Assembly: GCA_048937405.1 (NCBI GenBank)
Contig: JBHLNF010000008.1
Coordinates: 180,825-225,597, forward strand
Length of the DNA: 44,773 bases
Direction: 5' to 3'
Origin: Promethearchaeota archaeon
GTDB taxonomy: Archaea > Asgardarchaeota > Lokiarchaeia > Sigyniarchaeales > SOKP01
Shown here: positions 6,768 through 27,922 of the stretch, one piece after another
Position numbering within the stretch: position 1 is the first letter of the stretch
How the letters are laid out: the number at the start of each line of letters is the position of its first letter
Made by a program: the position numbers and the translations under genes
The notes under the pieces: model-generated
The model's database searches: none
Seen by the model: the letters and a program-made list of their open reading frames with translations, nothing else
Told to the model about the DNA's origin: nothing

Positions 6768-8255
6768 TTATGGATCATTTCTGAAAGGATGTCGTGCATT
6801 TTCCGCATTCTCAATTCCTTCTTCTATAGTTGGTAAACCTTCCATTGCTTTTCGAATTGCATTACGAGTTGCTTTATAATTGTTGATAAAGATTCTTTTT
6901 CTGGCACTTGCACTGGGATGTACAAAAACATTCACAATTATTACCAACTCATCAGCCAGTGCTTTTGGAAGAATTCCATCTTCAATACATTGCATAACTG
7001 CCTTAGCAATTGCTGCTTGAGCAGGTCCATATGTAAGGCTAGCATGACGGAGCGATATTGGACGTATTGTAGGAATCATGATAGTAGGCGGCTTAATTTG
7101 CATATTTGGTTCAAGTATAACTTGAAGTCCTTCGCGTCCTTCTTCTGGATTGGTTAAAGCTTGAGCATAAGCAGCACCAACAGGTCCATCTTTTTTTCCA
7201 ATTAATAGATCAATGTGAGCTAGCTCTGCTCGTTCTCCTACAAGAGATTCTCCAACTTTTAGTTCGAAATCAGTAATTTTTTTAGGCGTAATTCCTACAG
7301 CGTAAAAACGACCTGATAATGGTTTGTCTCCTAACTCAAATTGAATTTCTGATTTTTCAATCAATCCTAATTTTTCTAGTTCGACTCGCAATTCATCTTT
7401 AATTTCATAAGAAAGAGTATCTCCTAAAATTATAGGTTGACGAGTTTTTCCTACAGGCACTTTCATCATATTTAAACAAGATTTTACTCCTAAAGCACCT
7501 GAATTAATCAAAAGTCTAGCTAGTTTCTGTATTTTTTTTTGAAGGGTTTGTGCTTTTTCCAAACGATCATTTTTCACGTGATTATAAATTTCTAGCCAAA
7601 TATTTGGAATAACATTTGCAGATCCTAGAATACATCCTGCTGCACCCCCTGCTAAAGCACCCAAAACATTTTCATCCCATCCAATGAGAACTGAAATCTT
7701 ATCACTTACTTTTTCTAATAAAGCTGAAAAATATTTATAATCTCCACTTGAATCTTTAATGCCCACAATATTTTCGATATCTACAAGATCTTCAACAACC
7801 GTCCAAGGCAATTCTACTCCTGTACATACAGGTATATTATACAATATTATTGGAATATCGGTTTTTTCTGCTATTGTAAAATAATGATCATATAATCCTT
7901 TTGCTTTTGGCTTCAAAAAGTAAGGAGTAACAATTAAAACAGCATCTACTCCAATATTAGTTGCAGCTTTAGTATTATTAATTACTAATTTTGTACCAGT
8001 ATCGCCAGTTCCTGCGATGACTGGGACTCTACCATTTGTCTCATCTACAACAATTTCGATAACCTTTAATCTTTCTTCAAATGTCATATTTACAAATTCT
8101 CCTGTAGTTCCAACTGGAACCAATCCAGTGACTCCCTGATCTATTAAATAATTTACGAGATTTCTTATATTCTCTTCATTTATAGATTCATCCTTATTAA
8201 ATGGGGTTACCATAGCAGGCATAACTCCCGAAGGTCGAAAATTAAATTTAGACAT
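6768..8255 (-). CDS. Fusion of a DapA/DHDPS-family class I aldolase (N-terminal ~295 aa) and formaldehyde-activating enzyme Fae (C-terminal ~165 aa)
   Basis: N-terminal part has GTTGE, VPVIAGTG, LYNIP and GIKDSSG (Schiff-base Lys). C-terminal part has VGESLVG..AELAHIDLLIG..DGPVG, GPAQAAIAKAV, VFVHP, NYKAT..AIRKAM and HPF, all typical of Fae. Confidence 0.9.
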   Translation of the reverse strand: MSKFNFRPSGVMPAMVTPFNKDESINEENIRNLVNYLIDQGVTGLVPVGTTGEFVNMTFEERLKVIEIVVDETNGRVPVIAGTGDTGTKLVINNTKAATNIGVDAVLIVTPYFLKPKAKGLYDHYFTIAEKTDIPIILYNIPVCTGVELPWTVVEDLVDIENIVGIKDSSGDYKYFSALLEKVSDKISVLIGWDENVLGALAGGAAGCILGSANVIPNIWLEIYNHVKNDRLEKAQTLQKKIQKLARLLINSGALGVKSCLNMMKVPVGKTRQPIILGDTLSYEIKDELRVELEKLGLIEKSEIQFELGDKPLSGRFYAVGITPKKITDFELKVGESLVGERAELAHIDLLIGKKDGPVGAAYAQALTNPEEGREGLQVILEPNMQIKPPTIMIPTIRPISLRHASLTYGPAQAAIAKAVMQCIEDGILPKALADELVIIVNVFVHPSASARKRIFINNYKATRNAIRKAMEGLPTIEEGIENAENARHPFRNDP

Positions 8256-8261
8256 TGTTAA

Positions 8262-9548
8262 TTAACTCCTTTTATGTAAATTTTGTGCTGCAATAATATC
8301 AATACCATTTTCAATAAGTACTTTTGCAGTGGTATTAATAGCAACATACCTATCAAGAAGTCCTTGTCGCATGAAATCCCATTCTCCAGAATCAATTATT
8401 TCTTGTTTATCTCTAAAATAATCAAGAATATCGGTAGGGTGTTCTCTTGTCTGTTCTACGTCAATATTACCACCTTCATGTTTAGCACTGATATTTTTAA
8501 CCTTTTTAGCAATTTTAATTAACTCATTTCTTCGATCATAAGGTTGTCTTACTATACTTTTCCATGTTTCAACAATATGGTGCTCTAACCTAACAAGATC
8601 TTCAAAATTAAACGCTTTTCTAATATAAGCAGATAATTCAAGGGTCTCATTATTTACTGAATTTGAAAGATTAAATCCTATTAGTGGACTTGAACCATCT
8701 TCTCTAGCAAATAATTTAGCAGTCATCAGTGTCCATAGACATGAATATGGATTATCATTACCCATATATACTGAAATCTTAAATTCATTATTTATTCCTA
8801 GTTTATGAATAAAGTATCCAAGTAACACAGTTCCAGGATTGACATTTAGAACTTGCCTAATACCATAATTAGTGTAGTAATAAAGAAATTCATCAATCCA
8901 TCTTAATGCAAATTCATTAGGTTGTCCAACTCCGCCAAAATACCCAGTAATGGTGTCAGGTCCTCCTAAATGAATATTCACAGGCATACCATCGGGACCA
9001 GGGGCTGTTCCCTTTGTATCAAGAGTTTCAACATATGATGCTCCTATTATTTGCATAGCAGCAGTCATTGCTAAAAGATCTCCATCTTCTTCCTGTTCCT
9101 TCATTTTCCGTACTCGTATAATTCTTCCAGGTAGTAGGTTTTGCTCTTCAATAGCTGTTTTTGCCATATTTATTAAAAATGGAAAATATTGACAGGCAGA
9201 AAGTTCCAAAGTAATTGCAAAATCTTTATCAAATTCCACTTCTGAGACTTTATTTCCAAGAATCTTTCTTCTATAATCAGATATAGTTATAAAAGCATCA
9301 GAATCTCTCTTTTTGATTAACCATTCCAAATCTCTAACATATTCAGGTTTTTTTTTGGAAAGTTTGTTTAAAATAATATCTAACTTACTGGCTTCTTCAG
9401 CCTTTTTGTTGATCTCATCAATCCCACCATATTTTTCGATAATTTTGAATAAATTATTTATAAGAGGATTTTTTTCATCCAATAAAAAATCATTTATATT
9501 CTGTATAGCTTTCTCGCTTACTTTTAATTTCTTACTTAAATTTTTCAT
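8262..9548 (-). CDS. Uncharacterised soluble protein, probably co-transcribed with the aldolase-Fae fusion
   Basis: Long ORF with enzyme-like blocks (ETLDTKG, NIHLGGPDTITGYFGGVGQPN, EHHIVE, KHEGG). ATG at 9548 is the likelier start than 9605. Ends 6 nt before the next gene. Confidence 0.75.
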   Translation of the reverse strand: MKNLSKKLKVSEKAIQNINDFLLDEKNPLINNLFKIIEKYGGIDEINKKAEEASKLDIILNKLSKKKPEYVRDLEWLIKKRDSDAFITISDYRRKILGNKVSEVEFDKDFAITLELSACQYFPFLINMAKTAIEEQNLLPGRIIRVRKMKEQEEDGDLLAMTAAMQIIGASYVETLDTKGTAPGPDGMPVNIHLGGPDTITGYFGGVGQPNEFALRWIDEFLYYYTNYGIRQVLNVNPGTVLLGYFIHKLGINNEFKISVYMGNDNPYSCLWTLMTAKLFAREDGSSPLIGFNLSNSVNNETLELSAYIRKAFNFEDLVRLEHHIVETWKSIVRQPYDRRNELIKIAKKVKNISAKHEGGNIDVEQTREHPTDILDYFRDKQEIIDSGEWDFMRQGLLDRYVAINTTAKVLIENGIDIIAAQNLHKRS

Positions 9549-9974: not shown

Positions 9975-12317
9975 CTACGCATTTCTCTTTTTTCTCATAA
10001 TTGAGTAGGCAATCCCAAAAAGAGCAATCAAAGAGACTGATATAACAATTCCAATTGAGTATCCTGGGATAGGTTCTGCTCCTCCTCCTCCTACTTGTTT
10101 AACCAAGTTAAAGCGGAAGGTCTCCCACAACCAATCAACATCCCATCCACTAGTCATAGCTTGTCCTGTCTTATCATTCCCCAACCAAAGATGTTGATAT
10201 TGGAAGGTTTGAGACCACTCAGTTAGTTCATCATATAATTCCTCTTCTCTCGTATTATTTGCAAACCAGAGCTCATCTAGTATAGTATCACATGTTTCAT
10301 TATAATTAAAAGACAAATTACTACCCTGAACATATGGAAATAGAGATTTAGGTTCTGTTATTGGATTAGTGAATGGAATAGTAGCATAGCCCATATACCA
10401 GTCTGAGATCACCCCAAAACTACCAGTTGGGTCTTGTTCTACAATACCAGGACTATGGAAATAAGCGTCCATATACCCAAGATCATTATATCTTTGATGA
10501 TAAACTTTAAGTGCCCATCCGTCAGTTGTAAGATAAGGAAATGTGTAAGTTCCATCGACAAATCGAGTTGATGTATCAGGTAAATCTTCTTCTAAGATCA
10601 TACCACATCCAATATCTTCGAGAGCACTTCTCAAAAGATCTCTAGTAGAGATATGAGCCGCATCCCAATTATATTCAAATTCATAGATAGGATTTTTCTC
10701 TGCTACCTCATTCCAATCATCTGTTGAATTTGCAATAGTTAATTCTCTATCTACAACTATAGGACCCCAGTGTGAATCATTTATAAGGGCTAATCGAGCT
10801 ACAGTGAGATCTGTATCAGCAAGAGGAATAGTTGGATTGTAATATTGATGGGTTTTTCCCAGTAATCCTCCAGAACGTACTATTCTGTCATTCATAACTG
10901 TATGCACAAATGTATCATAGTCAAAAGCATAGGATAGTGCCTTCCTAAAAGCACGATTTGTGGCACCTGCATCTATAAGGGCAGTAAAGGTTGGAATACT
11001 GAAGGTCTTAAACATTGAAGGAACAAAATTGGGTCCTGTTCCCCCAGAGGATTCAGGGATAAAATCAAAAAACACGTTTATATTGGCATCACTCCAGTAT
11101 CTCCAAAAAGTCTCATTAACACAATTCAAGACAATGACCTCTCCATAGGGTTCCAGTCCCAATTCTTCATATGTTATTCCAGGAGAAGCGATCATCAGTG
11201 GGGCATCAAGAGGTTCCCATGAACGGTCACGAGCATAATCAATCTCTCCAGTTACTAACGCAAGATTTCTGGATCCATATCCTGCCTCGGAATGAGGAAA
11301 GCCAGTTAGAACAACTTTATCAACTTTATGATAACCTTGGGCTTGTTGAGCTGAAGAATTCCACCAATTTTCAAATCTTATCATAGTACCTTCATCATTT
11401 GCAACATCATGTTCTTCAAAAATATAAGGACCTGTACCGATTAAATGACCAGGGAATACTGTTTTATCATCTTGTGGAAAACCAGCTGTTTGTCCATACC
11501 CATAAATTGGAACATCAAAATAATCTTCATAGGATTGCATTGAGATATAGCGAATATTTCGGAGATATAATGGCCCAGTGCGATAATCATTAAAGTAAAC
11601 TCTAACTCTTCCTCCTGATGCAGCGTTTTCTAATATTGTTACATTTGCAAATCTAGGAAAACGGTCTGTGTAGTCAGCAGATTCCCCAAAATCTGCATAA
11701 GAAGTATTTCCATAAAACTTTGAAGCATTCCAACTTGCAGTGGCAAATTCTTCCCATTCACTCACTTTTAGATAATAAACTGCTCTCGCTTGCATGATAT
11801 TGACCTCATATGATGCTATAAGTGAATCTATACACCCATTGATGTTTCCAAGAATGTACATTATTCTATCAATATTCCATTTACATACTGTTGCATTCCA
11901 ATTTGAACCATCATGGAATGTAACTCCTGTTCGAAGGGTTATATCCATATACTCAATTCCATCATAAGCCATGAACCCAGCGTCAGTCATTTCATCTGGT
12001 CTCTCTCCAAAAGACCATTCAGTCGCTAGGATAGGGATTAACTCATCCAACTCCCCTGTGGCGTTAATTCCAAAATCGAATAATGATTCAAGAGCACTGC
12101 CCTCATAATAATTTCCAATATTGGCTGTAACACAAGGAGTATCCCAATTTCCTATACCACGAGGACCACAAGCTCCAATAGTAAAAATATCTTCCTCCTC
12201 CTCCGTTGTTTCAGCTACTACGACGCTTGCCAAAATCGGGAGTAATATGCTTGTCATCATTAAAAAGCTAAGAAGTAATCCTTTTGAATATTTATGCATT
12301 TTCAAATTTCTCCTCAT
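9975..12317 (-). CDS. ABC transporter substrate-binding protein (family 5, peptide/nickel type) with N-terminal signal and C-terminal Loki-CTERM-like anchor
   Basis: LRTGVTFHDGS, IGTGPY and RKALSYAFD motifs; hydrophobic N-terminus; C-terminus GGGGAEPIPGY + TM helix + RKKR. Confidence 0.85.
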   Translation of the reverse strand: MRRNLKMHKYSKGLLLSFLMMTSILLPILASVVVAETTEEEEDIFTIGACGPRGIGNWDTPCVTANIGNYYEGSALESLFDFGINATGELDELIPILATEWSFGERPDEMTDAGFMAYDGIEYMDITLRTGVTFHDGSNWNATVCKWNIDRIMYILGNINGCIDSLIASYEVNIMQARAVYYLKVSEWEEFATASWNASKFYGNTSYADFGESADYTDRFPRFANVTILENAASGGRVRVYFNDYRTGPLYLRNIRYISMQSYEDYFDVPIYGYGQTAGFPQDDKTVFPGHLIGTGPYIFEEHDVANDEGTMIRFENWWNSSAQQAQGYHKVDKVVLTGFPHSEAGYGSRNLALVTGEIDYARDRSWEPLDAPLMIASPGITYEELGLEPYGEVIVLNCVNETFWRYWSDANINVFFDFIPESSGGTGPNFVPSMFKTFSIPTFTALIDAGATNRAFRKALSYAFDYDTFVHTVMNDRIVRSGGLLGKTHQYYNPTIPLADTDLTVARLALINDSHWGPIVVDRELTIANSTDDWNEVAEKNPIYEFEYNWDAAHISTRDLLRSALEDIGCGMILEEDLPDTSTRFVDGTYTFPYLTTDGWALKVYHQRYNDLGYMDAYFHSPGIVEQDPTGSFGVISDWYMGYATIPFTNPITEPKSLFPYVQGSNLSFNYNETCDTILDELWFANNTREEELYDELTEWSQTFQYQHLWLGNDKTGQAMTSGWDVDWLWETFRFNLVKQVGGGGAEPIPGYSIGIVISVSLIALFGIAYSIMRKKRNA

Positions 12318-12415
12318 TTTATTTGGTTTAATTTATTTCTTTTTTTTTTATATATTTTAGAAAAAAAATTTTTTTTAGATAGATTCATTTTTTGCATTTA
12401 TTAATGGTACCCGTA

Positions 12416-12431
12416 TATTTAAAAGTTTCCG
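12416..12431 (-). promoter_or_regulatory. Putative BRE/TATA promoter for the substrate-binding protein gene
   Basis: Minus strand reads CGGAAAC-TTTTAAATA about 100 nt upstream of the SBP start. AT-rich background limits confidence. Confidence 0.4.
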
Positions 12432-12544
12432 AATATTTCAAATTATAAAATTAGTTTGAAAAAAAAAATAAATAAAAATAAATATAACAATACTTATTTT
12501 CTCAAAATAGAATGGATATTAATTTTATAAAATAAGAATTAGCG

Positions 12545-13063
12545 ATGTTGGATGATAATAAACATGAAGTAATAGCCAATAATGTAAAAAAAAGTAATAT
12601 AAAAATCGATTGGGGAAGACAGGGAGGCGTTATTTTTGCTTACATAATTGTATTACTAGGATATTATGGTATTGTTGCTAATGTGGTTATGGTTGATCAT
12701 CTTGGTCATTATATATCTTTTACTGAAATGGATAGAACAATACTATTTTGGACCTTCGAAGTATATAACCAAACTTATTTTATACCTATTCTTCTAATAT
12801 TTCTTGTTAGTTTCTTACTTACTTTTAAAGAGGATATTCCACATTATGGAATAAAAGCGTCAATATGGCTTGTTCCTTCAATAATTATTGAAGCTTTCAT
12901 ATTTTATTGGTTCATGTTTGGTTTTGCTGCTGAACCTTTTATCATGCAATTTGGACATTGGAAGGGGTATATTCATATACTAATATTATTTGTAACTACA
13001 CTAGTTGGTTCGTTAAGTGGTATGAAAATCAAACAGATAATTGAATCAAAAAGAAAAATTTAA
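12545..13063 (+). CDS. Hypothetical membrane protein (about 4 TM helices) heading the ABC operon
   Basis: Several long hydrophobic stretches; same strand as, and 56 nt before, the dppB-like gene. Confidence 0.7.
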   Translation: MLDDNKHEVIANNVKKSNIKIDWGRQGGVIFAYIIVLLGYYGIVANVVMVDHLGHYISFTEMDRTILFWTFEVYNQTYFIPILLIFLVSFLLTFKEDIPHYGIKASIWLVPSIIIEAFIFYWFMFGFAAEPFIMQFGHWKGYIHILILFVTTLVGSLSGMKIKQIIESKRKI

Positions 13064-13119
13064 GAAAAAAAACTATTTAATAGATTTTATTTATTAATCA
13101 ATGGAAAAGTGAGAAAAAG

Positions 13120-14190
13120 ATGAAAAAACAATCAACAAATATGATAAAATATATTATCAAAAGGTTATTAATGATGATTCCAATGCTGTTTCTTGTTCTA
13201 ACTTTTTCATGGCTTTTATCACATATGATGAATAGGAATCCACTAGTTTATTATGGTGATCAGTTAATGGATCCTGACGTGCTTGAAGCAGAATTAAATA
13301 GAATCGGATATTATGATCCTTGGTATATTAAACTTGGCAATTATTATAAGAACTTTTTTTCAGGAAATTGGGGTAAATCTCTTATATACCAAAAGGATAG
13401 ACCAGTATATGATATGATAGTAAAAGAAGTTTTTCCAAAAACAATAGAATTAATGATAATTCCAATAATACTTAGTCCTATTATAGCAGTTAAATTAGGG
13501 CTAGTATCTTCTACAAATAAAGATAAAGCAAAAGACACACTTATTAGAATTTTAGCAATTATAGGGGCGGGATTTCCAGTGTTCTGGATTGCTGCTTTGG
13601 TTCAAATGGTTTCTGGTTATTATTTCGGGATTTTTACTAATGGAGCATTTGATCTACCTGCTCTTTCTCCCAACACTCCTGGTCTGGATGGTCCTGGACC
13701 TGATGGAGCACCCAAAACAGGATTTCGTATTATTGATAGTATAATCTATAATGATCAAATTTATCTATTTGATACAATAACTCATTTAATAATTCCAGCT
13801 ATAGTTATCACTTTTGTTTCATTGGCAGGGGTTACAAGGCTAACCCGATCAAGTATGCTAGATGTCTTAGATCAAGATTATATTAGAACTGCTCGAGCTA
13901 AGGGTGTTTTGGAAAACGATATTATAAATAAACATGCTCTTCGCAACGCTTTGCTACCTACTAGTAATCTTATTATACAGGGTACAGCAACAGCCTTACT
14001 TGGATCTTTTTTTGTTGAGGTAACTTTTAGATATACTGGTTTTGGTTATACTTTATTGATGTCTATATTGTTGGCTGATTATAACGTTATAAACGCGCTC
14101 GTAATAATCATGACTATTATACTTCTTACAGGTACGTTAGTTGCTGATGTCATGTATACAATTATTGATCCTAGAATAACATATAGATAA
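13120..14190 (+). CDS. ABC peptide/nickel transporter permease, DppB/OppB-like
   Basis: YIIKRLL, GNWGKS, RSSMLDVLDQDYIRTARAKG, HALRNA and IDPRI motifs. Confidence 0.93.
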   Translation: MKKQSTNMIKYIIKRLLMMIPMLFLVLTFSWLLSHMMNRNPLVYYGDQLMDPDVLEAELNRIGYYDPWYIKLGNYYKNFFSGNWGKSLIYQKDRPVYDMIVKEVFPKTIELMIIPIILSPIIAVKLGLVSSTNKDKAKDTLIRILAIIGAGFPVFWIAALVQMVSGYYFGIFTNGAFDLPALSPNTPGLDGPGPDGAPKTGFRIIDSIIYNDQIYLFDTITHLIIPAIVITFVSLAGVTRLTRSSMLDVLDQDYIRTARAKGVLENDIINKHALRNALLPTSNLIIQGTATALLGSFFVEVTFRYTGFGYTLLMSILLADYNVINALVIIMTIILLTGTLVADVMYTIIDPRITYR

Positions 14191-14215
14191 GTTTAAAATT
14201 CAGAGGTTATTTATA

Positions 14216-15211
14216 ATGACAGAACAAGCATATATAGAAGATAAAGATTATGAGAAATTTGAATCACCAAGGAAAAAGAAATTTTTTCGATTCATAAAAT
14301 TTTATTTAATTCCTGGATGGCGAGATCCTGAATTCTCTGCTCAAGAATATCAAATAGAAAAAATAAAATCTAAAAGGAGATTATTTCGGCGTGTTCTTAA
14401 ACCTTTGACAATAACAGGATTAATAATGGTTTTATTTGTTGTTATATTAGCAATTTATGCACCCTGGATATCTAAGATTCCATTAGAGGAATTAGTGCCA
14501 CCAAATATTCCTCCAGGAGAAAACGCTTTTGCTCCTCCTTCCGCTGAACACCCATTAGGGACAACTAAAAATGGATGGGATATTTTAGGAAGAATTATTT
14601 GGGGGGCCAGAACTACACTTTCAATGGCATTAATCCCTACAACTATCGCACTTGGAGGAGGAATGATTCTAGGGACGATATCTGCATACTTTGGTGGAAT
14701 GGTTGATTATATAATAATGCGTTTTGTAGATTTAATGTATGCTTTTCCAACGATGATTCTTGTCATCATACTTATTCCTATAGTGGGACAAGCATTGTTG
14801 ACTAGTCTTGTAATTTTTGGAATACTTTTTATACCCTATAATATCAGGCTTATGCGTTCACTTGTTTTTCAAGTAAAACAGCTTGAATTTGTGAAGGCCG
14901 CAATAACGGGTGGTGCGCGAAAATTCAAACTAATGTTTAAACATATTGTACCAAATGCAATTTCTCCTATGATAATAAGTTTTTTTGGAGGTGCCGCGAT
15001 TGCTGTATTGGGACTAGCAGGTATTGCATTTATAGGATTGGGAGACCAAACAGTGGCTAGCTGGGGAACTGACATCAGTTGGGCAACTAATAACTTAACT
15101 GCTATGAATGCTCTTCTTTGGCCAGGAATTTTTATAGGAATTGCATCTGTAGGACTGATGATCATAGGTGATGGATTGAGAGATGCATTAGATCCACGAT
15201 TAAATCTATAA
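14216..15211 (+). CDS. ABC peptide/nickel transporter permease, DppC/OppC-like
   Basis: PPSAEHPLGTTKNGWDILGRIIWGAR, KHIVPN and GDGLRDALDPR motifs. Confidence 0.93.
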   Translation: MTEQAYIEDKDYEKFESPRKKKFFRFIKFYLIPGWRDPEFSAQEYQIEKIKSKRRLFRRVLKPLTITGLIMVLFVVILAIYAPWISKIPLEELVPPNIPPGENAFAPPSAEHPLGTTKNGWDILGRIIWGARTTLSMALIPTTIALGGGMILGTISAYFGGMVDYIIMRFVDLMYAFPTMILVIILIPIVGQALLTSLVIFGILFIPYNIRLMRSLVFQVKQLEFVKAAITGGARKFKLMFKHIVPNAISPMIISFFGGAAIAVLGLAGIAFIGLGDQTVASWGTDISWATNNLTAMNALLWPGIFIGIASVGLMIIGDGLRDALDPRLNL

Positions 15212-15242
15212 ATATTAAATTTATAAATAAAAGGTTTTAAAT

Positions 15243-17153
15243 ATGTTCTTTCAAACTGTAGGATTAAATTATGGGATGGCTTTAGTTGAATCTCTTACCG
15301 CTACCCTTATTTTATACTTTATTTCGATTTTTATTAATCTTCAAATTCCTGATAATCAACAAATCTCGAAAAAATTACATAAAATAAGTTCAGCTGTAAG
15401 TAGTGTTATAATTTTAGGTATAATATTTGGTATTAGAGCTCTTTTTGAAACTCTTGCGGTTGTTAATCATTGGTTTCTTGTTTTCAATACCGATATTTTA
15501 TTATTTGCAATAATGACAACAATTTTTTATTTTATATATCCAAAATTTGTAAATAAATATGAAAGATATGTAATTGAAGGAGAAAATCTTATTAGTGACC
15601 AATTTATTAAAGTTTTTAAAATTTTTAATGGATTAATGTGGATTATTTCAGCTATTTTTATTTCAATTCCACTCCTCGGAATTAATATGAGAAACCCCGA
15701 TATATTTAACCTCGGATTTTTATGGGCCAGTTTCTTTATTGGATTAGATCTTGTTATCACAATATTAATTAATAAAATTCGATCTATAGAAAAACGTATT
15801 CCTAAACAGGTTCTTAAATATTCTATGTTTACTGGTGGGCTTATTTCATTTGGAATTTGGTCAATACAACTAATAATTTTTGAATTATATTTGAAAAGAT
15901 TAGCTGGAATAGATCTATTTAAACAAGATATACGTGTATTAATTCCTGTAGTTAGTATAATATATTCTGTTCTATTTGTAATATCTATGAAAAAGATATT
16001 CATGCCTAAGGTTCAAGAACAAAGTAAGTTAGAAATAGAAGAAGCACTCAAATTAGTTTCAGAAGAGAAGACTGCTAGTATTTCTATAACAGTAAATAAT
16101 GTTATTCTTGATGTGAAAGATCTAACCACCTATTTCCATACAGAAGAGGGTGTCGTTCATGCAGTAGAGGGTGTTTCTTTTAAAATATATAAAGGAGAAG
16201 TTCTTGGTCTTGTAGGAGAAACAGGTTGTGGGAAATCAGTAACCGCATTATCTATACTTCAAGTAATTCGCCCCCCAGGAAAAATAGAGAAAGGAAATAT
16301 TACCTTTGGAGGAGAAAATCTATTACTAAAATCTGAATCGGAAATGTTGAAATATCGTGGTAAAGATATTACTATGATTTTTCAAGATCCACTCAACTCA
16401 CTCAATCCTGTTTTTAGAATAGGTAAACAAATCTCTGAAGTATTTTTATTGCATATGGAAAATGAATTACTTGCAGAAATCGCTAAATTCCCCGAAAAAA
16501 GCATATATAGTGTTGCTCGAGAATGGAGTATACAACTTTTAAAAAATTTAAATATACCTTTTCCTGAAGTAATTATCGACAGATATCCACATGAATTAAG
16601 TGGTGGTATGCGACAACGAGTTCAGATTGCTATGGCTCTTGCATGTAGTCCTAAATTATTGATTGCTGATGAGCCTACTACAGCATTAGATGTGACAATT
16701 CAAAATCAAATTCTAAAACTAATGAAAGATCTCCGTACAAAATTTGACACTACAATATTATTTATTACTCATGATCTAGGAATTATCTCAAAAATGTGTG
16801 ATCGTGTTGCTGTTATGTATAGTGGGCATATAGTTGAATATGGGGATATAAAAAGATTATTTATTAAGCCATATCATCCATACACTAAAGGACTTATAGC
16901 TTCTGTTCCAATTGTTGGGGAAAAAAAAGATCAACTTGAAGTAATACCGGGGATGGTACCAAATTTAATTTATCCTCCCGAAGGATGTAGATTTCACCCT
17001 AGGTGTCATTTCTGTTTCGAACCTTGTAATTCAAAAGTTCCAAAAGCGATTGAGGTTGAACAAGGTTATTTTGTAGCATGTCATCTGTATGATCCTCAAT
17101 ATAAAAATTTAGCAGATATTTCTATAAAGAAAGTTAAAGAAAAAATAGAATAA
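15243..17153 (+). CDS. DppD/OppD-like ABC ATPase with an N-terminal multi-pass membrane domain
   Basis: Walker A GETGCGKS, signature LSGGMRQR, Walker B LLIADEPT, HPYT and C-terminal CRFHPRC..C..CH. The first ~255 aa are strongly hydrophobic and in the same open frame. Confidence 0.9.
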   Translation: MFFQTVGLNYGMALVESLTATLILYFISIFINLQIPDNQQISKKLHKISSAVSSVIILGIIFGIRALFETLAVVNHWFLVFNTDILLFAIMTTIFYFIYPKFVNKYERYVIEGENLISDQFIKVFKIFNGLMWIISAIFISIPLLGINMRNPDIFNLGFLWASFFIGLDLVITILINKIRSIEKRIPKQVLKYSMFTGGLISFGIWSIQLIIFELYLKRLAGIDLFKQDIRVLIPVVSIIYSVLFVISMKKIFMPKVQEQSKLEIEEALKLVSEEKTASISITVNNVILDVKDLTTYFHTEEGVVHAVEGVSFKIYKGEVLGLVGETGCGKSVTALSILQVIRPPGKIEKGNITFGGENLLLKSESEMLKYRGKDITMIFQDPLNSLNPVFRIGKQISEVFLLHMENELLAEIAKFPEKSIYSVAREWSIQLLKNLNIPFPEVIIDRYPHELSGGMRQRVQIAMALACSPKLLIADEPTTALDVTIQNQILKLMKDLRTKFDTTILFITHDLGIISKMCDRVAVMYSGHIVEYGDIKRLFIKPYHPYTKGLIASVPIVGEKKDQLEVIPGMVPNLIYPPEGCRFHPRCHFCFEPCNSKVPKAIEVEQGYFVACHLYDPQYKNLADISIKKVKEKIE

Positions 17154-17170
17154 ATAATAATAATTAGAGG

Positions 17171-18895
17171 TTGTTAGTAATTATAGTCAATATAATAGAA
17201 GTTGTCATTATCCCAATTGTGATACTTATAATAGGCTTTTTTCTACTGAATAAGATTTTAGAAGTAAAAAGATGGGAGGATTCCAAGAAAATCTCACTTA
17301 TATTAAATTCATTTTGGACCGTTTTCAATATAATTTTCATTTTTATTATTATAAATTCTTTAGGTGAATCACCTGTTTATAAATTCTTTTTAGTTGCTGT
17401 GAATATACCCGTTGCTATATTGATCCTTTGGGGTTTTTATGAAAAAACTGTTCTAAAGTCATTTATATTGATCAGTCTTACCCAAATCGCATTGATTGTA
17501 TTATGGCTTTTATTTAGTGCAATTCCAGAAGTTATAACTATTTTTTTAACTGAAGGTGGTGATGATTTGGATGCATCCAAATTATCATTTACTCTTGCCT
17601 TTCTATTTCTTTTTGGACTATCGATTTTTATTTCACATTGGGGAGATAAAATACAATTAGTAAAATATAGAAAGTCATTTACTATTAGCAGTATAATCCC
17701 TGGGATTTATTATTTAATGCTTAATTTTATTATTCAAGGTGAAGAATTTAATAATAATATTATCTCTATTGTGATATTTAGCTTTTTAATTGCGTTTATT
17801 TCTTCATTTTTGATTAAAAAAATTGCGTATAGAACTATACAGTTTAAAGAAATAAGAGGGTTATCTATTCTTGAGAAGGGTAAGGAATTACTAGATGTAA
17901 AAGATCTTAAAGTACACTATCCACTTCTTAAAGGTGTCTTAAAAAGACAAGTTGGCGCTGTGAAAGCTGTCAATGGTGTTTCCTTTCAAATAAAAACAGG
18001 TGAAACACTCGGATTAGTTGGAGAAAGTGGATGTGGAAAAACAACTATTGCTAAAGCAATTTTAGGTTTGGTTGAAAAAACAGATGGAGAGATGAAGTTC
18101 CTAGATGAATCTATTCCTCCTGAATATTCAACTTTTTTAAGACAAAAAATTCAGATGGTTTTTCAAGACCCAGATGCATCCTTGAATCCACGTTTAAAAG
18201 TAGTAGACATCATTGCAGAACCTCTTAAGAATTTACTTGGTATTACTAATAAAATAGAAATCAGAAAACATGTTTTAAGATTATTGGATCAAGTTTCCTT
18301 AAAACGAGAACATATGGATCGTTATCCTCATGAATTTTCTGGAGGTCAAAAACAAAGAATTGTTATAGCAAGAACATTAGCTTGTAATCCTGAGTTAATA
18401 ATTTTGGATGAACCCACTTCTGCACTTGATGTATCAGTTCAAGCACAAATCCTTAATTTACTTAAAGAATTGCAAGCTAAATATGGGTATGGATTTTTAT
18501 TTATTACACATAATTTAGCTGTTGTAAATCACATTGCTGATCGTGTAGCTGTTATGTATCTTGGCAAGATTGTAGAAATTGGAAAGATGAATCAAATTTT
18601 TTCTAATCCTTCACATCCATACACTATAGCTCTTTTGAGTTCCCGTTCTGAAATTGATCCATACAATCAAGAAATCAGTTTTGTTATAAAAGGTGAAGTA
18701 CCAAGCCCAATTAGACCTCCACCTGGATGTACCTTTAATCCCCGTTGTTCTTCAGATGCTCGTACGAAAGAATGTGAAATTGAGATACCTCATAAGATTA
18801 AAATCGAAGATGACCACTTTATTTGGTGTGTAAATCCTCCTAAATCAATGCAATCAACAATTCAAAAATCTGAAGAGAGTTTATCTGCTAAATAA
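17171..18895 (+). CDS. DppF/OppF-like ABC ATPase with an N-terminal multi-pass membrane domain
   Basis: GESGCGKT, FSGGQKQR, IILDEPTSALD, HPYT and GCTFNPRC motifs; first ~220 aa hydrophobic. Exact start is uncertain (TTG at 17171). Confidence 0.88.
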   Translation: MLVIIVNIIEVVIIPIVILIIGFFLLNKILEVKRWEDSKKISLILNSFWTVFNIIFIFIIINSLGESPVYKFFLVAVNIPVAILILWGFYEKTVLKSFILISLTQIALIVLWLLFSAIPEVITIFLTEGGDDLDASKLSFTLAFLFLFGLSIFISHWGDKIQLVKYRKSFTISSIIPGIYYLMLNFIIQGEEFNNNIISIVIFSFLIAFISSFLIKKIAYRTIQFKEIRGLSILEKGKELLDVKDLKVHYPLLKGVLKRQVGAVKAVNGVSFQIKTGETLGLVGESGCGKTTIAKAILGLVEKTDGEMKFLDESIPPEYSTFLRQKIQMVFQDPDASLNPRLKVVDIIAEPLKNLLGITNKIEIRKHVLRLLDQVSLKREHMDRYPHEFSGGQKQRIVIARTLACNPELIILDEPTSALDVSVQAQILNLLKELQAKYGYGFLFITHNLAVVNHIADRVAVMYLGKIVEIGKMNQIFSNPSHPYTIALLSSRSEIDPYNQEISFVIKGEVPSPIRPPPGCTFNPRCSSDARTKECEIEIPHKIKIEDDHFIWCVNPPKSMQSTIQKSEESLSAK

Positions 18896-19380: not shown

Positions 19381-19417
19381 AGAAACATTTATAAATATAT
19401 TGTGTCTACTAAAATTC
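19381..19417 (+). promoter_or_regulatory. BRE/TATA promoter of GRE copy 1 (probably leaderless)
   Basis: TTTATAAA at 19388-19395, exactly -30 to -23 from ATG 19418, with the same spacing as in the other copies. Confidence 0.7.
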
Positions 19418-21865
19418 ATGGTAGTTCAAAGTTTTAAGTTGAATCCAATCCTAGGGACACCTTCGGAAAGGGTTCGCAAGATTAGAGATAGAATGCTATC
19501 TATGCCTAGAGAACTTGATATTGAACGAGCTCGTTGTTATACAAGAATCTATAAACAAATGGAGGATGCTCCTCCATGTATAAAAAATGTTAAGGCACTA
19601 GAGGAATTTTTACGATGTCTTCCAATAAGGATTGAAGACGATGAGCTACTTGTTGGTGTAAAATCTAGTAAAGTAAGAGCTGATCCTATCGAAATTGAAC
19701 GTGGAGGGCGTGCTAAACTTTTTGGGTTTGTCTATAATGATTCAATAGATAAAAAAATAAGAGATAATTTTAGTGCGAATTTCACTTTTATTAACCGGTA
19801 TGTTCCCTTAAAAGAAGAAGAAATTAATGAATTGAAAAACGATATAATTCCCTACTGGAATGGTAGATCAGTAGAAGATCGAAAGGTAGAATATTGGAGA
19901 GAAGCAGGTTTGCTTAATGAAAATGAGGAATCTATGACAAGAATTCCCTTTAGACGTTCTGTGACTAATACTGATATGTTTGCAGGTTCTAGGGGTCAAG
20001 GACATGTTGTTCCTGGTTATCGGCGTGTACTTAAAATGGGATTTAAAGGAATCGAAAAGATGGCGCAAGAAGGTCTTGCAAATCTCAAGGAAACAGATGA
20101 AAATTATGAACATCGAAAGGATTTTTATGAATCAGTTGTGGTAGCAGCACAAGCGGTCATCGAGTATTCTAATCGCTATGCTGATCTCGCAATGGAAATG
20201 GCACAAAATGCACCAGAAACAAGAAGGGCCGAGCTTCTGGAAATTGCTGAACGTGTAAGGCGAGTTCCTGCCCTTCCTCCAAGGACATTCATGGAAGCAC
20301 TTCAATCAATTTGGATGACAAATGTCGTCATGGAAATGAGTTATGGTGAAGGAAATATTTTTTCTCAAGGACGAGTAGACCAATATCTTTATCCATATTA
20401 CACAGTAGATGTAGCAGAAGGGCGTATTACGTATGAAGAGGCTTTAGAAGCAATTGAGGAATATTTAGTGAAACTTGCTTCAGTCGTTATAGCAGGACAG
20501 AATAATATTACTATTGGAGGATCAGACCATGATGGAAATGATGCGACTAATGATGTGTCTTACATGTTTCTTGAAGCAATTGCAAATGTAAAAAGTTTAT
20601 TAAACACATTGTCAATTAGGATTTCTTCCAAAACACCCCATGAATTTATAAAAAGAACTATTGAAGCTATTAAATATACTGGTGGGATGGGAATTCATAA
20701 TGATGATGTTTTAATACCACAGCTTAATAATACAAGTTATTCATTGGAAGATGCCCGTGATTACTCCCTTGTAGGTTGTGTAGAACCTGCGGGTACTGGA
20801 AATGATTTCTCCTATACAGCCGGTAATGCCATTCAGATTTCAATCCTTCTAAATATGGCATTAAATGAGGGACGCACTATTTTATCTGGAACTAAAACTG
20901 TTGGAGCAAAAACACCTCCAGCAAGCGTTTTTAAATCTTTTGAAGATGTGAAGAATGCCTGGGTCGAACAAGTTAAGTTTGCTATAGATCTTACTGTGAA
21001 AAAAGCTGAATTAAAGGATAAAGCCTTTGCTGATTATATGCCTTCCCCATTACTTTCATCTTCGATAGAAGGATGTCTTGAGAGCGGAATGGATGCTACT
21101 CGAAATGGAGCAAAATACAATAATAATCCTATGGGTGCACAAGGATTAGCAACAGTAACTAATTCCTTAGCTGCAATTCGCTGGGCTGTATTTGAAGAAA
21201 AAATAGTAACAATGGAAGAATTAGTTAAACATATGAATAATAATTTTAAAGGGGCAGAATCTCTACGTGAAAAACTACGAAATAAGGCACCTAAATATGG
21301 TAATGGTGATGAAAGAACCGATGACCTTGCCAAATGGGTAGCAACTACCCTCTGTGAAAATACAAGAAAATATAAAGCAAGGGGTGGTGATGGTATCTAT
21401 CATAATTGCCTCGTATCAGCGGGAAGTCAGATTATGGAGGGTAAATTGCTAGGAGCAACTGCAGATGGAAGATTATTTGGTGAACCTGTAGCAAACGGTA
21501 TTTCTCCTGCGAATGGAACAGAAAAGAATGGTCTTACTATGGCTCTCCGATCAATAGCTTATGCAACAGCTGAACCACATCTCACTAATGGAGCCTCAAT
21601 GAATGTTAGAATCAATCCTACCTTATTAGAAACAGATGAAGGAATTGAAAAATTTACTTCTATTGTAGAGGCTTATTTAGAGTTAGGAGGACGAGAACTT
21701 CAAGTAAATCCGATAAGTTCAGAAACACTCCGGGACGCACAAGTTCATCCAGAAAAATATCCTGACCTTTCAGTTAAAGTTTCAGGATACTCTGCTCGAT
21801 TCATAGATATAGCAAAAGAGCTTCAAGACGATATTATCAACAGAACCGTTTTTGAAGAATTATAA
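19418..21865 (+). CDS. Glycyl-radical enzyme (PFL superfamily, PFL2/eliminase-like), copy 1
   Basis: GQGH, GRVDQYLYPYY, Cys loop SLVGCVEP, PKYGNGD, GATADGR and Gly loop VKVSGYS. Start set at ATG 19418 by homology to the MVVQ starts of copies 2-4. Confidence 0.93.
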   Translation: MVVQSFKLNPILGTPSERVRKIRDRMLSMPRELDIERARCYTRIYKQMEDAPPCIKNVKALEEFLRCLPIRIEDDELLVGVKSSKVRADPIEIERGGRAKLFGFVYNDSIDKKIRDNFSANFTFINRYVPLKEEEINELKNDIIPYWNGRSVEDRKVEYWREAGLLNENEESMTRIPFRRSVTNTDMFAGSRGQGHVVPGYRRVLKMGFKGIEKMAQEGLANLKETDENYEHRKDFYESVVVAAQAVIEYSNRYADLAMEMAQNAPETRRAELLEIAERVRRVPALPPRTFMEALQSIWMTNVVMEMSYGEGNIFSQGRVDQYLYPYYTVDVAEGRITYEEALEAIEEYLVKLASVVIAGQNNITIGGSDHDGNDATNDVSYMFLEAIANVKSLLNTLSIRISSKTPHEFIKRTIEAIKYTGGMGIHNDDVLIPQLNNTSYSLEDARDYSLVGCVEPAGTGNDFSYTAGNAIQISILLNMALNEGRTILSGTKTVGAKTPPASVFKSFEDVKNAWVEQVKFAIDLTVKKAELKDKAFADYMPSPLLSSSIEGCLESGMDATRNGAKYNNNPMGAQGLATVTNSLAAIRWAVFEEKIVTMEELVKHMNNNFKGAESLREKLRNKAPKYGNGDERTDDLAKWVATTLCENTRKYKARGGDGIYHNCLVSAGSQIMEGKLLGATADGRLFGEPVANGISPANGTEKNGLTMALRSIAYATAEPHLTNGASMNVRINPTLLETDEGIEKFTSIVEAYLELGGRELQVNPISSETLRDAQVHPEKYPDLSVKVSGYSARFIDIAKELQDDIINRTVFEEL

Positions 21866-22019
21866 ATATAAGCAATATTTTAAATATCAATTTTAAAATA
21901 TCTTTTTTTCTATTTTTGAACTTTGTTAATTCTATAACTTAGAATCTATGAAGAATCATATTCAAGATAAGATTAGATATGAATTGCTCTTTCTTCCTTA
22001 TAAAGATGTTACTCTACAA

Positions 22020-22605
22020 ATGAACTACGCACAGCCTAAAGGCTGTTACTTCCTACGAGTACATAATCGCTTCTAGTACGAGTTGGGCTGTATGTCGTAG
22101 AAAACCATTCCATTATGTTAGGAATGATTCCTCATTCACAGAGGGTTTATGCGATAGGAATTCATAGTTATGCTTGGAAAATTAAAAATGAGTCATGATC
22201 TCATGATTTTGAACATAAAATTGAGATATTTACCAACATGAGTTCCACAGTTGCATGTAATACTTCTTTTGAAGAGCAACGGTTTTTTTTATTTTTTGTC
22301 TTTATAACAGACCTTTGTAATCTTAGACTCATCAATTCTTATTACTCTTTTACCCATTTTTTCCGCTTTATAGGTTACGAATTCGACAAACCTTAATCTA
22401 TAACCTTTGTTGTAAACCGAACAGTTGAAGATTTTATGTGTTTTATTCTTTTTAGTATCCCCTATTTCTTTCTTTTAAGTTAGTTTTATTTTAAATATAA
22501 TAAAGAACAATCAGTTTAAACAAAGGAGCGCTTAATCGTTTAATGATTTTTCTTCTCATCCTCATTTCATCCCATCCCCAAAGGGAGGGATTTTCTTGAG
22601 TTATA
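22020..22605 (-). mobile_element. Decayed, internally deleted IS200/IS605-family (tnpB, IS1341-like) element with both hairpin ends
   Basis: On the minus strand the left end reads AAATCCCTCCCTTTGGGGATGGGATGAA (~22566-22593) and the right end GGAAGTAACAGCCTTTAGGCTGTGCGTAGTTCAT (22020-22053). They flank a TnpB C-terminal remnant. The left boundary is approximate. Confidence 0.8.
22053..22405 (-). pseudogene. tnpB: tnpB pseudogene fragment (C-terminal Zn-ribbon/RuvC-III region)
   Basis: Manual translation gives RFVEFVTYKAEKMGKRVIRIDESKITKVCYKDKK*KKPLLFKRSITCNCGTHVGKYLN..., then FLSHKPSVNEESFLT*WNGFLRHTAQLVLEAIMYS*. This matches the TnpB pattern YKA..G..V....TS..C..CG...C.CG...DRD.N, with stops and loss of DRD. 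Confidence 0.8.
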
Positions 22606-22635
22606 ATGATAAAATGCTATACCAGAATATTCAAG

Positions 22636-22672
22636 CAAAAACTTTAAATGTACGATGATTATTTAACAACAC
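22636..22672 (+). promoter_or_regulatory. BRE/TATA promoter of GRE copy 2 (divergent version)
   Basis: CAAAAAC-TTTAAATG, with the TATA starting at 22643, 30 nt before ATG 22673. Confidence 0.6.
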
Positions 22673-25123
22673 ATGGTAGTTCAAAATTTTAAGTTGAACC
22701 CAATCCCCGGAACTCCTTCGGAAAGGGTTCGCAAGATTAGAGATAGAATGCTATCTATGCCTAGAGAACTTGATATTGAACGAGCTCGTTGTTATACAAG
22801 AATCTATAAGCAAATGGAGGATGCACCTCCATGTATGAAAAATGTTAAAGCATTAGAGGAATTTTTACGATCCCTTCCAATAAGGATTGAAGACGATGAG
22901 CTACTTGTTGGTGTAAAATCTAGTAAAATAAGAGCAGATCCAATGGAAATAGAACGAGGAATGCGTGCTTCAATTTTTGGATTTCTCTATGATGATTCAA
23001 TAGATCAAAAAATAAGAGATGCATTTGCCCAAAACTTTTCATGGGTTAATCGATATGTTCCCTTAACAGAACAAGAAGTTGATGAGATGAAAAATGAAAT
23101 TCTTCCCTACTGGAAAGATAGGAACATAGAGGCTCGACAGAGAGAATATTATAAAAAAGCAGGTTTGATTGAAGAACCAAAGGAATTTAAGGGTCCAGCA
23201 GTTCCCTTTATGGATTATATGGGTGGCACTGATATGTTTGCGGGTGCTCATGGTCAGGGACATATCATTCCAGGTTATCGGCGTGTACTTAAGATGGGAT
23301 TCAAGGGAATCGAAAAGATGGCACAAGAGGGACTCGCAAAACTCGAGGAAACAGATGATAATTACGAACAACGAAAGGATTTTTATGAATCAGTTGTAAT
23401 TGCAGCACAAGCAGTGATCGAATATTCCAATCGCTATGCAGATCTCGCAATGGAAATGGCACAAAATGCACCAGAAACAAGAAGAGCTGATCTTCTGGAA
23501 ATTGCTGAACGTGTAAGGCGAGTTCCTGCCCTTCCTCCAAGAACATTCATGGAAGCACTTCAATCCATTTGGATGACGAATGTTGTTATGGAGATGAGCT
23601 ATGGTGACGGAAATATCTTTTCTCAAGGACGAGTAGATCAATATCTTTATCCATATTTCACAGCAGATGTAGCAGAAGGGCGTATTACATATGAAGAGGC
23701 TTTAGAAGCAATTGAGGAATATTTAGTGAAACTTGCTTCAGTCGTTATAGCAGGACAGAACAATATTACTATTGGAGGATTAGATTATGATGGAAATGAT
23801 GCGACAAATGACGTATCCTTTATGTTTCTTGAGGCAATTGCAAATGTAAAAAGTCTATTAAATACATTATCAATAAGGATCTCTTCCAAGACACCCCATG
23901 AGTTTGTAAAAAGATCGATTGAAGCTTTTAAATTTACCGGTGGAATGGCAATTCATAATGATGACATTTTAGTACCTCAACTTAATAATACAGGATATTC
24001 ATTAGAAGATGCTCGAGATTATTCACTCGTAGGGTGTGTAGAACCCGCAGGTACCGGAAATGATTTCTCCTATACGGCAGGTAATGTCGTACAGATTTCA
24101 ATCCTTTTAAACATGGCATTAAATGAGGGACGTAATCTTTTTTCAGGAAACAAAACTGTTGGCGCGAAAACACCCCCAGCAAGCACTTTTAAATCTTTTG
24201 AAGACGTGAAAAATGCTTTTGTAGAACAACTTAAATTTGCTATAGATCTTACTGTAAAAAAGGCTGAATTAAAGGATAAGGCATTTGCAGATTATTTACC
24301 TTCCCCATTGCTTTCATCTTCAATAGAAGGATGTCTCGAGAGCGGAATGGATGGAACTCGAAATGGAGCAAAATATAATAATAATCCTATGGGTTCACAA
24401 GGGTTAGCAACGGTCACTAATTCCTTAGCTGCAATTCGTTGGGCTGTATTTGAAGAAAAATTAGTATCAATGGAAGATTTAGTTAAGAATATGAATAATA
24501 ACTTCAGAGGAGCTGAAAATCTTCGAGAAAAATTACGAAATAAGGCTCCTAAATATGGAAATGGTGATGAAAAAACAGACGAACTTGCCAAATGGATAGC
24601 AACTACCCTTTGTGAACTTACAAGGACATATAAAGCAAGGGGTGGTGATGGTATTTATCATAATTGCCTTGTATCCTCTGGAACTCAAATTATGGAGGGA
24701 CAAATGTTAGGAGCGACTGCTGATGGAAGATTAATGGGTCAACCTGTAGCGAATGGTATTTCTCCTGCAAATGGAACAGAAAAGAATGGTCTTACCATGG
24801 CACTTAGATCAGTGGCTTATGCAACAGCAGATCCTCATCTCACTAATGGAGCCGCAATGAATATCAGAATCAATCCTACTTTATTAGAAACAGATGAAGG
24901 AATTGAAAAATTTACTTCTATTGTAGAGGCTTATTTAGAAATAGGAGGAAGGGAGCTTCAGATAAATCCAATAAGTTCAGAAACACTTAAAGACGCACAA
25001 GTTCATCCCGAAAAATATCCTGATCTTTCAGTTAAAGTTTCAGGCTACTCTGCTCGATTTATAGATATAACAAAAGAGCTTCAAGACGATATTATCGACC
25101 GAACTGTTTTCAGTGAATTATAA
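22673..25123 (+). CDS. Glycyl-radical enzyme, copy 2
   Basis: Same motifs as copy 1 (SLVGCVEP, VKVSGYS); full length, 816 aa. Confidence 0.93.
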   Translation: MVVQNFKLNPIPGTPSERVRKIRDRMLSMPRELDIERARCYTRIYKQMEDAPPCMKNVKALEEFLRSLPIRIEDDELLVGVKSSKIRADPMEIERGMRASIFGFLYDDSIDQKIRDAFAQNFSWVNRYVPLTEQEVDEMKNEILPYWKDRNIEARQREYYKKAGLIEEPKEFKGPAVPFMDYMGGTDMFAGAHGQGHIIPGYRRVLKMGFKGIEKMAQEGLAKLEETDDNYEQRKDFYESVVIAAQAVIEYSNRYADLAMEMAQNAPETRRADLLEIAERVRRVPALPPRTFMEALQSIWMTNVVMEMSYGDGNIFSQGRVDQYLYPYFTADVAEGRITYEEALEAIEEYLVKLASVVIAGQNNITIGGLDYDGNDATNDVSFMFLEAIANVKSLLNTLSIRISSKTPHEFVKRSIEAFKFTGGMAIHNDDILVPQLNNTGYSLEDARDYSLVGCVEPAGTGNDFSYTAGNVVQISILLNMALNEGRNLFSGNKTVGAKTPPASTFKSFEDVKNAFVEQLKFAIDLTVKKAELKDKAFADYLPSPLLSSSIEGCLESGMDGTRNGAKYNNNPMGSQGLATVTNSLAAIRWAVFEEKLVSMEDLVKNMNNNFRGAENLREKLRNKAPKYGNGDEKTDELAKWIATTLCELTRTYKARGGDGIYHNCLVSSGTQIMEGQMLGATADGRLMGQPVANGISPANGTEKNGLTMALRSVAYATADPHLTNGAAMNIRINPTLLETDEGIEKFTSIVEAYLEIGGRELQINPISSETLKDAQVHPEKYPDLSVKVSGYSARFIDITKELQDDIIDRTVFSEL

Positions 25124-25136
25124 ATTATAATTTAAC

Positions 25137-25154
25137 TTTCTTTTTTTTTTTTTT
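25137..25154 (+). terminator. Oligo-T archaeal terminator after GRE copy 2
   Basis: T14 run shortly after the stop codon. Similar runs follow copies 1 (21903-21909), 3 (27723-27732) and 4 (30380-30389). Confidence 0.6.
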
Positions 25155-25202
25155 ATTACTGTTCTATTTCATTCGTTATATTAAATCGAAATAAATTATT
25201 AT

Positions 25203-25239
25203 AAGAATATTTATAAATATAAAATGTCTATTAAAATTC
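25203..25239 (+). promoter_or_regulatory. BRE/TATA promoter of GRE copy 3
   Basis: TTTATAAA at 25210-25217 (-30 to -23), followed by TATAAAATGTCTATTAAAA shared with copy 4. Confidence 0.7.
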
Positions 25240-27690: not shown

Positions 27691-27722
27691 ACAATAATAT
27701 TGATTTAATAATTTAATATTAA

Positions 27723-27732
27723 TTTTTTTTTT
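27723..27732 (+). terminator. Oligo-T terminator after GRE copy 3
   Basis: T10 run about 30 nt after the stop codon. Confidence 0.5.
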
Positions 27733-27885
27733 CTATTACTATATTATCGTATTTATGATAAAACTTTGAAATTAAATATTAATAAAAAATATTTTAGTTG
27801 TAGAAGTAATAATTTATATCTATTTCTAATTCGGAAGTTTTAGAAATCTACAGGATAAAAAGCTGAATATTTATTTTTGTATTAT

Positions 27886-27922
27886 AAAAACATTTATAAA
27901 TATAAAATGTCTATTAAAAATC
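27886..27922 (+). promoter_or_regulatory. BRE/TATA promoter of GRE copy 4
   Basis: AAAAACA-TTTATAAA (TATA 27893-27900, -30 to -23 from ATG 27923). Confidence 0.7.

Follow-up and report, generated by a model that had tools for sequence, protein, structure and literature searches.

A DHDPS-family aldolase fused to Fae in Asgard archaea: a putative link between 4-hydroxy-2-oxobutanoate and tetrahydromethanopterin

What does a class I aldolase barrel do when it is joined, in one frame, to a formaldehyde-activating enzyme (Fae)? A first-pass annotation of the window, the whole stretch of 44,773 nucleotides analysed here, had described such a frame with an intact barrel and a full Fae domain, had read it as something other than DHDPS and had offered 4-hydroxy-2-oxobutanoate (HOB), by analogy, as a likely substrate. 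Domain searches confirmed the architecture and placed it on the minus strand, which that annotation had not given (Table 1): PF00701 matched the barrel with 262.7 bits, PF08714 matched the Fae domain with 183.3 bits (profile positions 1-158 of 159), and the Fae model TIGR03126 passed its cutoff (183.7 versus 118.05).

Table 1. Positions of the fusion, its domains and the neighbouring genes in the window
Feature	Position	Strand	Remarks
Aldolase-Fae fusion gene (P0001)	6768..8255	minus	495 aa; ATG at 8255, stop ends at 6768, zero internal stops
DHDPS/NAL-family class I barrel	7377..8234	minus	residues 8-293 of the fusion
Fae domain	6783..7256	minus	residues 334-491 of the fusion; AHIDL His347, GPAQ, VFVHP, C-terminal HPF motif
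Partner gene X (P0272)	8262..9548	minus	428 aa; unnamed TIM-barrel family
Peptide ABC transporter set	9975..18895		
Four tandem ORFs	19400..30364	plus	813-821 aa; the first a glycyl-radical (PFL-like) enzyme
Radical-SAM activase	30590..31534	minus	after the glycyl-radical array
UDP-glucose dehydrogenase gene	31825..33183		

The motifs singled out in the first reading (GTTGE, the Tyr of LYNIP, the Lys of IKDS and the His of AHIDL) are all present. The residues that place the barrel in the PF00701 superfamily are K167 (Schiff-base Lys), Y139 (catalytic Tyr) and T50/T51 of GTTGE; these catalytic positions stand, but the word intact was slightly generous, the Y107-equivalent being Phe113 here and Tyr in most relatives. 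In the Fae domain, AHIDL at residues 346-350 (H347) is colinear with Fae from M. extorquens (1y5y), in an alignment spanning nearly the full Fae length. The position of the Fae NKV lysine reads PTI here, PTI or PTV in most fusions and PKV in two; we take the NKV/PKV lysine to be a pterin-site residue, on the presumed roles of Fae His22 and Lys71. Both active sites are retained in this single fusion protein. Many lineages carry tandem fusion copies, one with an intact Fae domain and the other without the His and the C-terminal motif, and some tandem copies lack catalytic residues; the complementary Fae status suggests that such copies may form a heteromer. P0128 and P0132 are a likely fusion pair in which both barrels lack the Schiff-base Lys and one protein has the Fae His.

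Compared with E. coli DapA, the fusion barrel keeps the equivalents of T44, T45, Y133, K161 and D188. R138 is replaced by C144, N248 by G253, D187 by W193 (Trp or His) and S48 by F54, and the lysine-feedback residues H53, H56, N80 and E84 are not kept. The loss of the Arg that binds aspartate semialdehyde (ASA), noticed after YNIP in the first reading, was thus borne out by the alignment, and none of 38 aligned fused sequences has an Arg at this position, where Val, Leu, Ala and Thr occur besides Cys144. The dapA model TIGR00674 passed its cutoff on the fusion (246.3 versus 206.15; true dapA copies score about 341 bits), which explains the database name dapA. In the tree, the fused aldolases form one clade (support 100/98) apart from true DapA, a clade that includes one 310-aa non-fused row, possibly a fragment. 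The host genome does have the separate lysine genes that the first reading asked about: two dapA genes of canonical type, scoring about 341 bits, adjoin dapB and asd. Among the fusions inspected none adjoins dapB. Models for NanA, KdgD, archaeal KDG aldolase and the HpaI-type TIGR02313 all scored far below their curated cutoffs on the fusion; these enzymes share with it a class I pyruvate aldolase/dehydratase barrel without the DHDPS Arg, and none is fused to Fae. Judged by its residues, its clade and the canonical dapA genes elsewhere, the fusion is not DapA and its database label is wrong. Elsewhere, a 629-aa ORF (G000:C25:174053-174808; L077:1678-3567) has a weak N-terminal DHDPS-like domain and a C-terminal half without assignment.

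Close fused full-length homologs number at least 120 at 82-91% identity. GTDB loci with the fusion number 73, the close relatives being labelled Promethearchaeota (Lokiarchaeia), and fused representatives reach down to 35% identity, with records labelled Thorarchaeota, Korarchaeota and Anaerolineae. Since fused homologs occur across so many genomes, an assembly or sequencing artefact is ruled out. Mapped by taxonomy, the DHDPS+Fae architecture is present in about half of the sampled Asgard genomes (123/251) and about a quarter of the Bathyarchaeia (33/121); with the fusion labelled dapA, the metabolic maps of those genomes are wrong at this point. Mch, a marker of tetrahydromethanopterin (H4MPT), was found in 117 of the 123 Asgard fusion genomes, a pattern that is descriptive because the genomes are related, partly incomplete drafts and not independent. 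The host genome itself encodes Mch, Mtd and Ftr, as well as a separate Fae-Hps gene. The proposed link of the fusion to formaldehyde and H4MPT gains support from these host genes and from the near confinement of the fusion to Mch-positive genomes.

The gap between X and the fusion is 6 nt, and a GGAG element overlaps the last codons of X. The first reading of the fusion had left X out, although it supplies the greater part of the evidence. Of 74 loci, 70 have X next to the fusion, in divergent orientation in Bathyarchaeia, and X has at least 8000 homologs. In 392 sequences, E115, S117, R142, K257, S259, N293, E322, H323, H324, K356, H357 and E358 are invariant. X matched no family in Pfam or NCBIfam, and no PDB entry by sequence at E values up to 10; nor does it have an invariant Cys, the Fe-S ligand of U32 (PF01136). 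The predicted structure of X (pLDDT 88) is a TIM barrel. The nearest Atlas structures, at a TM of 0.74, are 316-aa "U32-like" proteins, hereafter X', which adjoin the fusion in lineages without X and some of whose bacterial members give marginal, partial PF01136 matches. Fold searches with X and X' returned only generic TIM barrels and no specific structural relative. Class II FBP-aldolase-like barrels were the top Foldseek matches, but with TM values of about 0.33 for X and 0.48 for X'; the best fold match of X (Z 11.9, rmsd 3.5, 207 aligned residues) was tied with other barrels, and Mk0906 and mannonate dehydratase are each one of many tied matches. An Atlas feature search of X gave glycosyltransferase-like top matches below 0.85, which we treated as noise.

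X and X' have ExS, R, KxS and N motifs in common and are each other's best non-self HMM match among 2813 proteins. HHalign of the two alone is weak (probability 7.7%); together with the reciprocal HMM and structure matches, it argues that X and X', which share a fold, are distant homologs. They occur together in none of the 251 Asgard genomes: of the 123 with the fusion, 95 have X, 22 have X' and 6 have neither, which gives 117/123 with one or the other, and the corresponding figure for Bathyarchaeia is 27/33 (121 genomes sampled); the genomes being related and in part incomplete, these counts too are descriptive. The two need not be isofunctional, since sugar-acid operons contain X' as well, a copy of X' that looks truncated adjoins dmpFG (4-hydroxy-2-oxovalerate aldolase), and X and X' lie in one operon at locus L269. 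A distant X' homolog (L241:8980-9918) belongs to an Enterobacter plasmid cluster that also encodes an aminotransferase, a 2-hydroxyacid dehydrogenase and iron redox enzymes and looks like one for an amino-acid natural product. At L179, L185 and L200, X stands between a GlmS-like gene and an amino-acid dehydrogenase. Polaromonas-like loci have a dapA near X that is of canonical type; it was left out of the support for our reading of the fusion.

Regarding the wider surroundings, the UDP-glucose dehydrogenase gene is the direct divergent neighbour of X in 54 of 74 related loci. In the window, the two genes are separated by the ABC transporter set and the glycyl-radical array, a stretch that looks like a 22-kb insertion or rearrangement. 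A promoter scan, with a bacterial model on an archaeal host, found no more sites than chance.

The genes that take the place of the fusion beside X bear on its substrate. X-positive, fusion-negative Asgard genomes number 45, and 38 of these belong to groups without an Mch match. Seven loci from three Mch-negative groups were inspected, and in six of them the genes after X encode a class I aminotransferase, homoserine dehydrogenase (Hom) and aldehyde:ferredoxin oxidoreductase (AOR), a set that recurs beside X in other archaeal contigs and that would convert HOB into homoserine, ASA and then aspartate. Among contigs of Bacillota and other bacteria-like origin, panB is the immediate neighbour of X 14 times, and two contexts of the X-panB type lie near Fhs/FolD-like or acetyl-CoA synthase genes. 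The X-linked PanB passes the TIGR00222 cutoff, is an extra copy in three of three genomes checked, and carries the substitutions V179L (14/14), V214I (14/14) and I212L (13/14); the PanB tree did not recover these proteins as one clean clade. Positions 179, 212 and 214 presumably line the dimethyl pocket, and the changes fit a donor smaller than ketoisovalerate. Finally, one Bathyarchaeia fusion is followed by thrB (homoserine kinase) and thrC (threonine synthase), in a 1.4-Mb draft with no match to Hom or Asd. HOB appears to be the sole metabolite within reach of aldolase+Fae, PanB, aminotransferase+Hom and ThrB-ThrC alike. From these partner swaps in four separate gene contexts we infer HOB as the likely substrate, so that the suggestion first made by analogy is now backed by the panB, aminotransferase+Hom+AOR and thrB-thrC contexts. 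In a Mch-negative, Lokiarchaeia-related genus (L118:7778-8824), the gene before X is a divergent member of the DHDPS family that stands alone, with no Fae domain.

We propose that the fusion probably catalyses the reversible conversion of HOB into pyruvate and methylene-H4MPT via formaldehyde, and that it probably works catabolically here. The barrel would bind HOB as a Schiff base on Lys167 and cleave it by a retro-aldol reaction into pyruvate and formaldehyde. The formaldehyde would be handed to the Fae site (H347) and condensed with H4MPT to methylene-H4MPT, the reverse being release. The protein would in that case be a two-step 2-oxoacid:methylene-H4MPT hydroxymethyl-transfer enzyme, the H4MPT counterpart of the folate-dependent PanB paralog, and X, in the same operon, would supply or remove HOB. 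Flow in the host would run from an amino acid to its keto acid, to HOB, and to pyruvate and C1, a putative and plausible entry of C1 into the Wood-Ljungdahl pathway. Domains, residues, clade, linkage and co-occurrence are what we draw on for the HOB substrate, the aldol activity, the formaldehyde hand-over, the direction and the reaction of X. The breadth of aldehydes accepted by DapA-family barrels counts against HOB.

As to direction, the host genome encodes two aspartate kinases, Asd, Hom, ThrC and HcyBio elsewhere, and a canonical PanB (V179/I212/V214) with a pantoate kinase-like gene. With separate lysine, homoserine/threonine, homocysteine and pantoate genes, the host does not need the fusion for these products, and a catabolic role is for this reason somewhat the likelier one. 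The same chemistry could be mainly anabolic, with methylene-H4MPT releasing formaldehyde that is joined to pyruvate, and HOB leading on to homoserine, threonine or methionine (X adding the thiol), a route that would act as a homoserine-cycle module in nature and bypass aspartate kinase, Asd and Hom; it overlaps with the proposal above in chemistry and differs in direction. The fusion-thrB-thrC cluster in a genome without Hom or Asd matches suggests such use in some Bathyarchaeia, Hom was not found in four of five fusion-positive Bathyarchaeia checked, and three fusions lie near a homocysteine-synthesis-like gene (below cutoff). As the main role it is nonetheless rather unlikely, given the host's own aspartate-family genes and the AOR and amino-acid dehydrogenase neighbours, which suit catabolism better; moreover, Fae condensation favours methylene-H4MPT.

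A sugar-acid route, which leaves room for the fusion to act on HOB, would have X dehydrate a tetronate (threonate, erythronate) to HOB or process a 2-keto-3-deoxy-aldonate, the fusion completing a non-phosphorylative Entner-Doudoroff-like path. X' does accompany lactonase, mandelate-racemase-family dehydratase and sugar ABC genes in Thermomicrobium and Streptomyces, a UxaA-like gene occurs at L194, and mannonate dehydratase is among the tied fold matches of X. We hold this route to be improbable, since those sugar operons already contain a dehydratase, X proper is mostly found beside amino-acid genes, and the 73 close loci have no flanking sugar genes, apart from the divergent UDP-glucose dehydrogenase gene, which resembles synteny. 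Another 2-oxoacid as donor, either ketoisovalerate (in an H4MPT-dependent PanB reaction for pantoate) or 2-oxobutanoate (the product of methionine gamma-lyase or threonine deaminase), is quite improbable: the functional counterpart is indeed a PanB above the TIGR00222 cutoff, and L272 has methionine gamma-lyase, a producer of 2-oxobutanoate, ahead of X-panB, but the host has its canonical PanB and the aminotransferase+Hom+AOR and thrB-thrC contexts fit only the homoserine skeleton. That the protein should be a genuine DHDPS whose Fae tail is incidental is scarcely credible in spite of the TIGR00674 score, the DHDPS entries that head its PDB matches and the database names of its homologs, in view of the replaced R138, N248, D187 and lysine-site residues, the separate clade, the pair of canonical dapA genes next to dapB and asd, and the fusions inspected, none of which has dapB alongside.

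Set beside known systems, HOB cleavage coupled to Fae would most resemble archaeal Fae-Hps (PRK13307, NF009833), in which an aldolase is likewise joined to Fae and the formaldehyde set free by retro-aldol cleavage can be trapped on H4MPT. In the fusion, however, the domain order is reversed, a Schiff-base DHDPS-family barrel stands in place of the metal-dependent Hps barrel, and the proposed substrate is a 2-oxoacid rather than a sugar phosphate; NF009833 stays below its cutoff (146 versus 274), matching the Fae part only. With DapA the fusion shares the fold, the Schiff-base Lys, the Tyr and the Thr-Thr carboxylate site, whereas the substitutions and clade described above, the missing lysine site and the fused Fae set it apart. 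PanB, which replaces the fusion beside X in bacteria, also moves a hydroxymethyl group between a pterin carrier and C3 of a 2-oxoacid, as proposed here, but it is unrelated in sequence, uses a metal enolate in one active site and depends on THF instead of H4MPT.

In the synthetic homoserine cycle, HOB aldolases (YfaU/RhmA, GarL) join pyruvate and formaldehyde to HOB, which is transaminated to homoserine, as we propose for the natural system (PMC7918591, PMC8224422, 10.1101/2025.02.17.638773). YfaU and GarL perform this reaction in engineered systems, and the known HOB aldolases are class II (PMC7918591, 10.1101/2025.02.17.638773). HOB formation in vivo is partly restored by PanB from P. putida, a screen found no HOB aldolase action for DapA or YjhH of E. 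coli, and the formation of HOB from pyruvate and formaldehyde was termed a non-native reaction (10.1101/2025.02.17.638773). The activities of YfaU/RhmA and GarL are side activities of class II aldolases, whereas the fusion is proposed as a natural class I enzyme devoted to this reaction and linked to H4MPT. In the literature covered, with subscription papers largely outside it, we found no description of a DHDPS-Fae fusion, of the X family or of a natural HOB node; PMC11291895 mentions only Fae-HPS. Both domains are known and Fae-Hps is a precedent for the design, while the DHDPS-Fae architecture and the partner family appear to be new. If the proposal is right, non-methanogenic sediment archaea gain through the fusion a further point at which C1 units join or leave H4MPT, nature has an enzyme dedicated to the pyruvate + formaldehyde reaction that was engineered for synthetic methylotrophy, and a substrate range is predicted for an unnamed family of at least 8000 members.

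Regarding X itself, a candidate C4 lyase/hydratase acting on 4-substituted 2-oxobutanoates is the most likely assignment and fits most contexts, X' beside 4-hydroxy-2-oxovalerate aldolase among them. Our leading guess, a tentative one, is that X demethiolates the keto acid of methionine to HOB and methanethiol. A methionine gamma-lyase over cutoff lies directly upstream of X-panB (L272), and amino-acid dehydrogenases or oxidases and NhaC-family transporters neighbour X. An operon that contains methionine gamma-lyase needs no second demethiolase, which counts against the guess. In its favour, the 54 genomes of the host's family gave no close TIGR01328 match. No Asgard match to methionine gamma-lyase passes the cutoff, close homologs occur in X-positive groups, and no clean anti-correlation of this enzyme with X was found. 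A cultured Hodarchaeales strain is suspected of releasing methylsulfides from methionine and may be a parallel case (10.1101/2025.02.26.640444). It is possible, though doubtful, that X, the fusion and its stand-ins (the panB paralog; aminotransferase+Hom+AOR) make up a widespread anaerobic HOB-centred pathway in which a new lyase family demethiolates methionine keto acid and HOB is converted into pyruvate and pterin-bound C1 or into aspartate. Such a pathway would be the natural equivalent of the synthetic homoserine cycle, and it would supply methanethiol to the methanogens with which Asgard archaea partner. A further hint of methionine is that the amino-acid dehydrogenase beside X in bacteria-like loci has a 61% ortholog in the host (G000:C7:323908-325773); this protein resembles Glu/Leu/Phe/Val dehydrogenases, ends in a CBS-like tail and reads PSMGG where the glutamate-binding Lys motif would stand.
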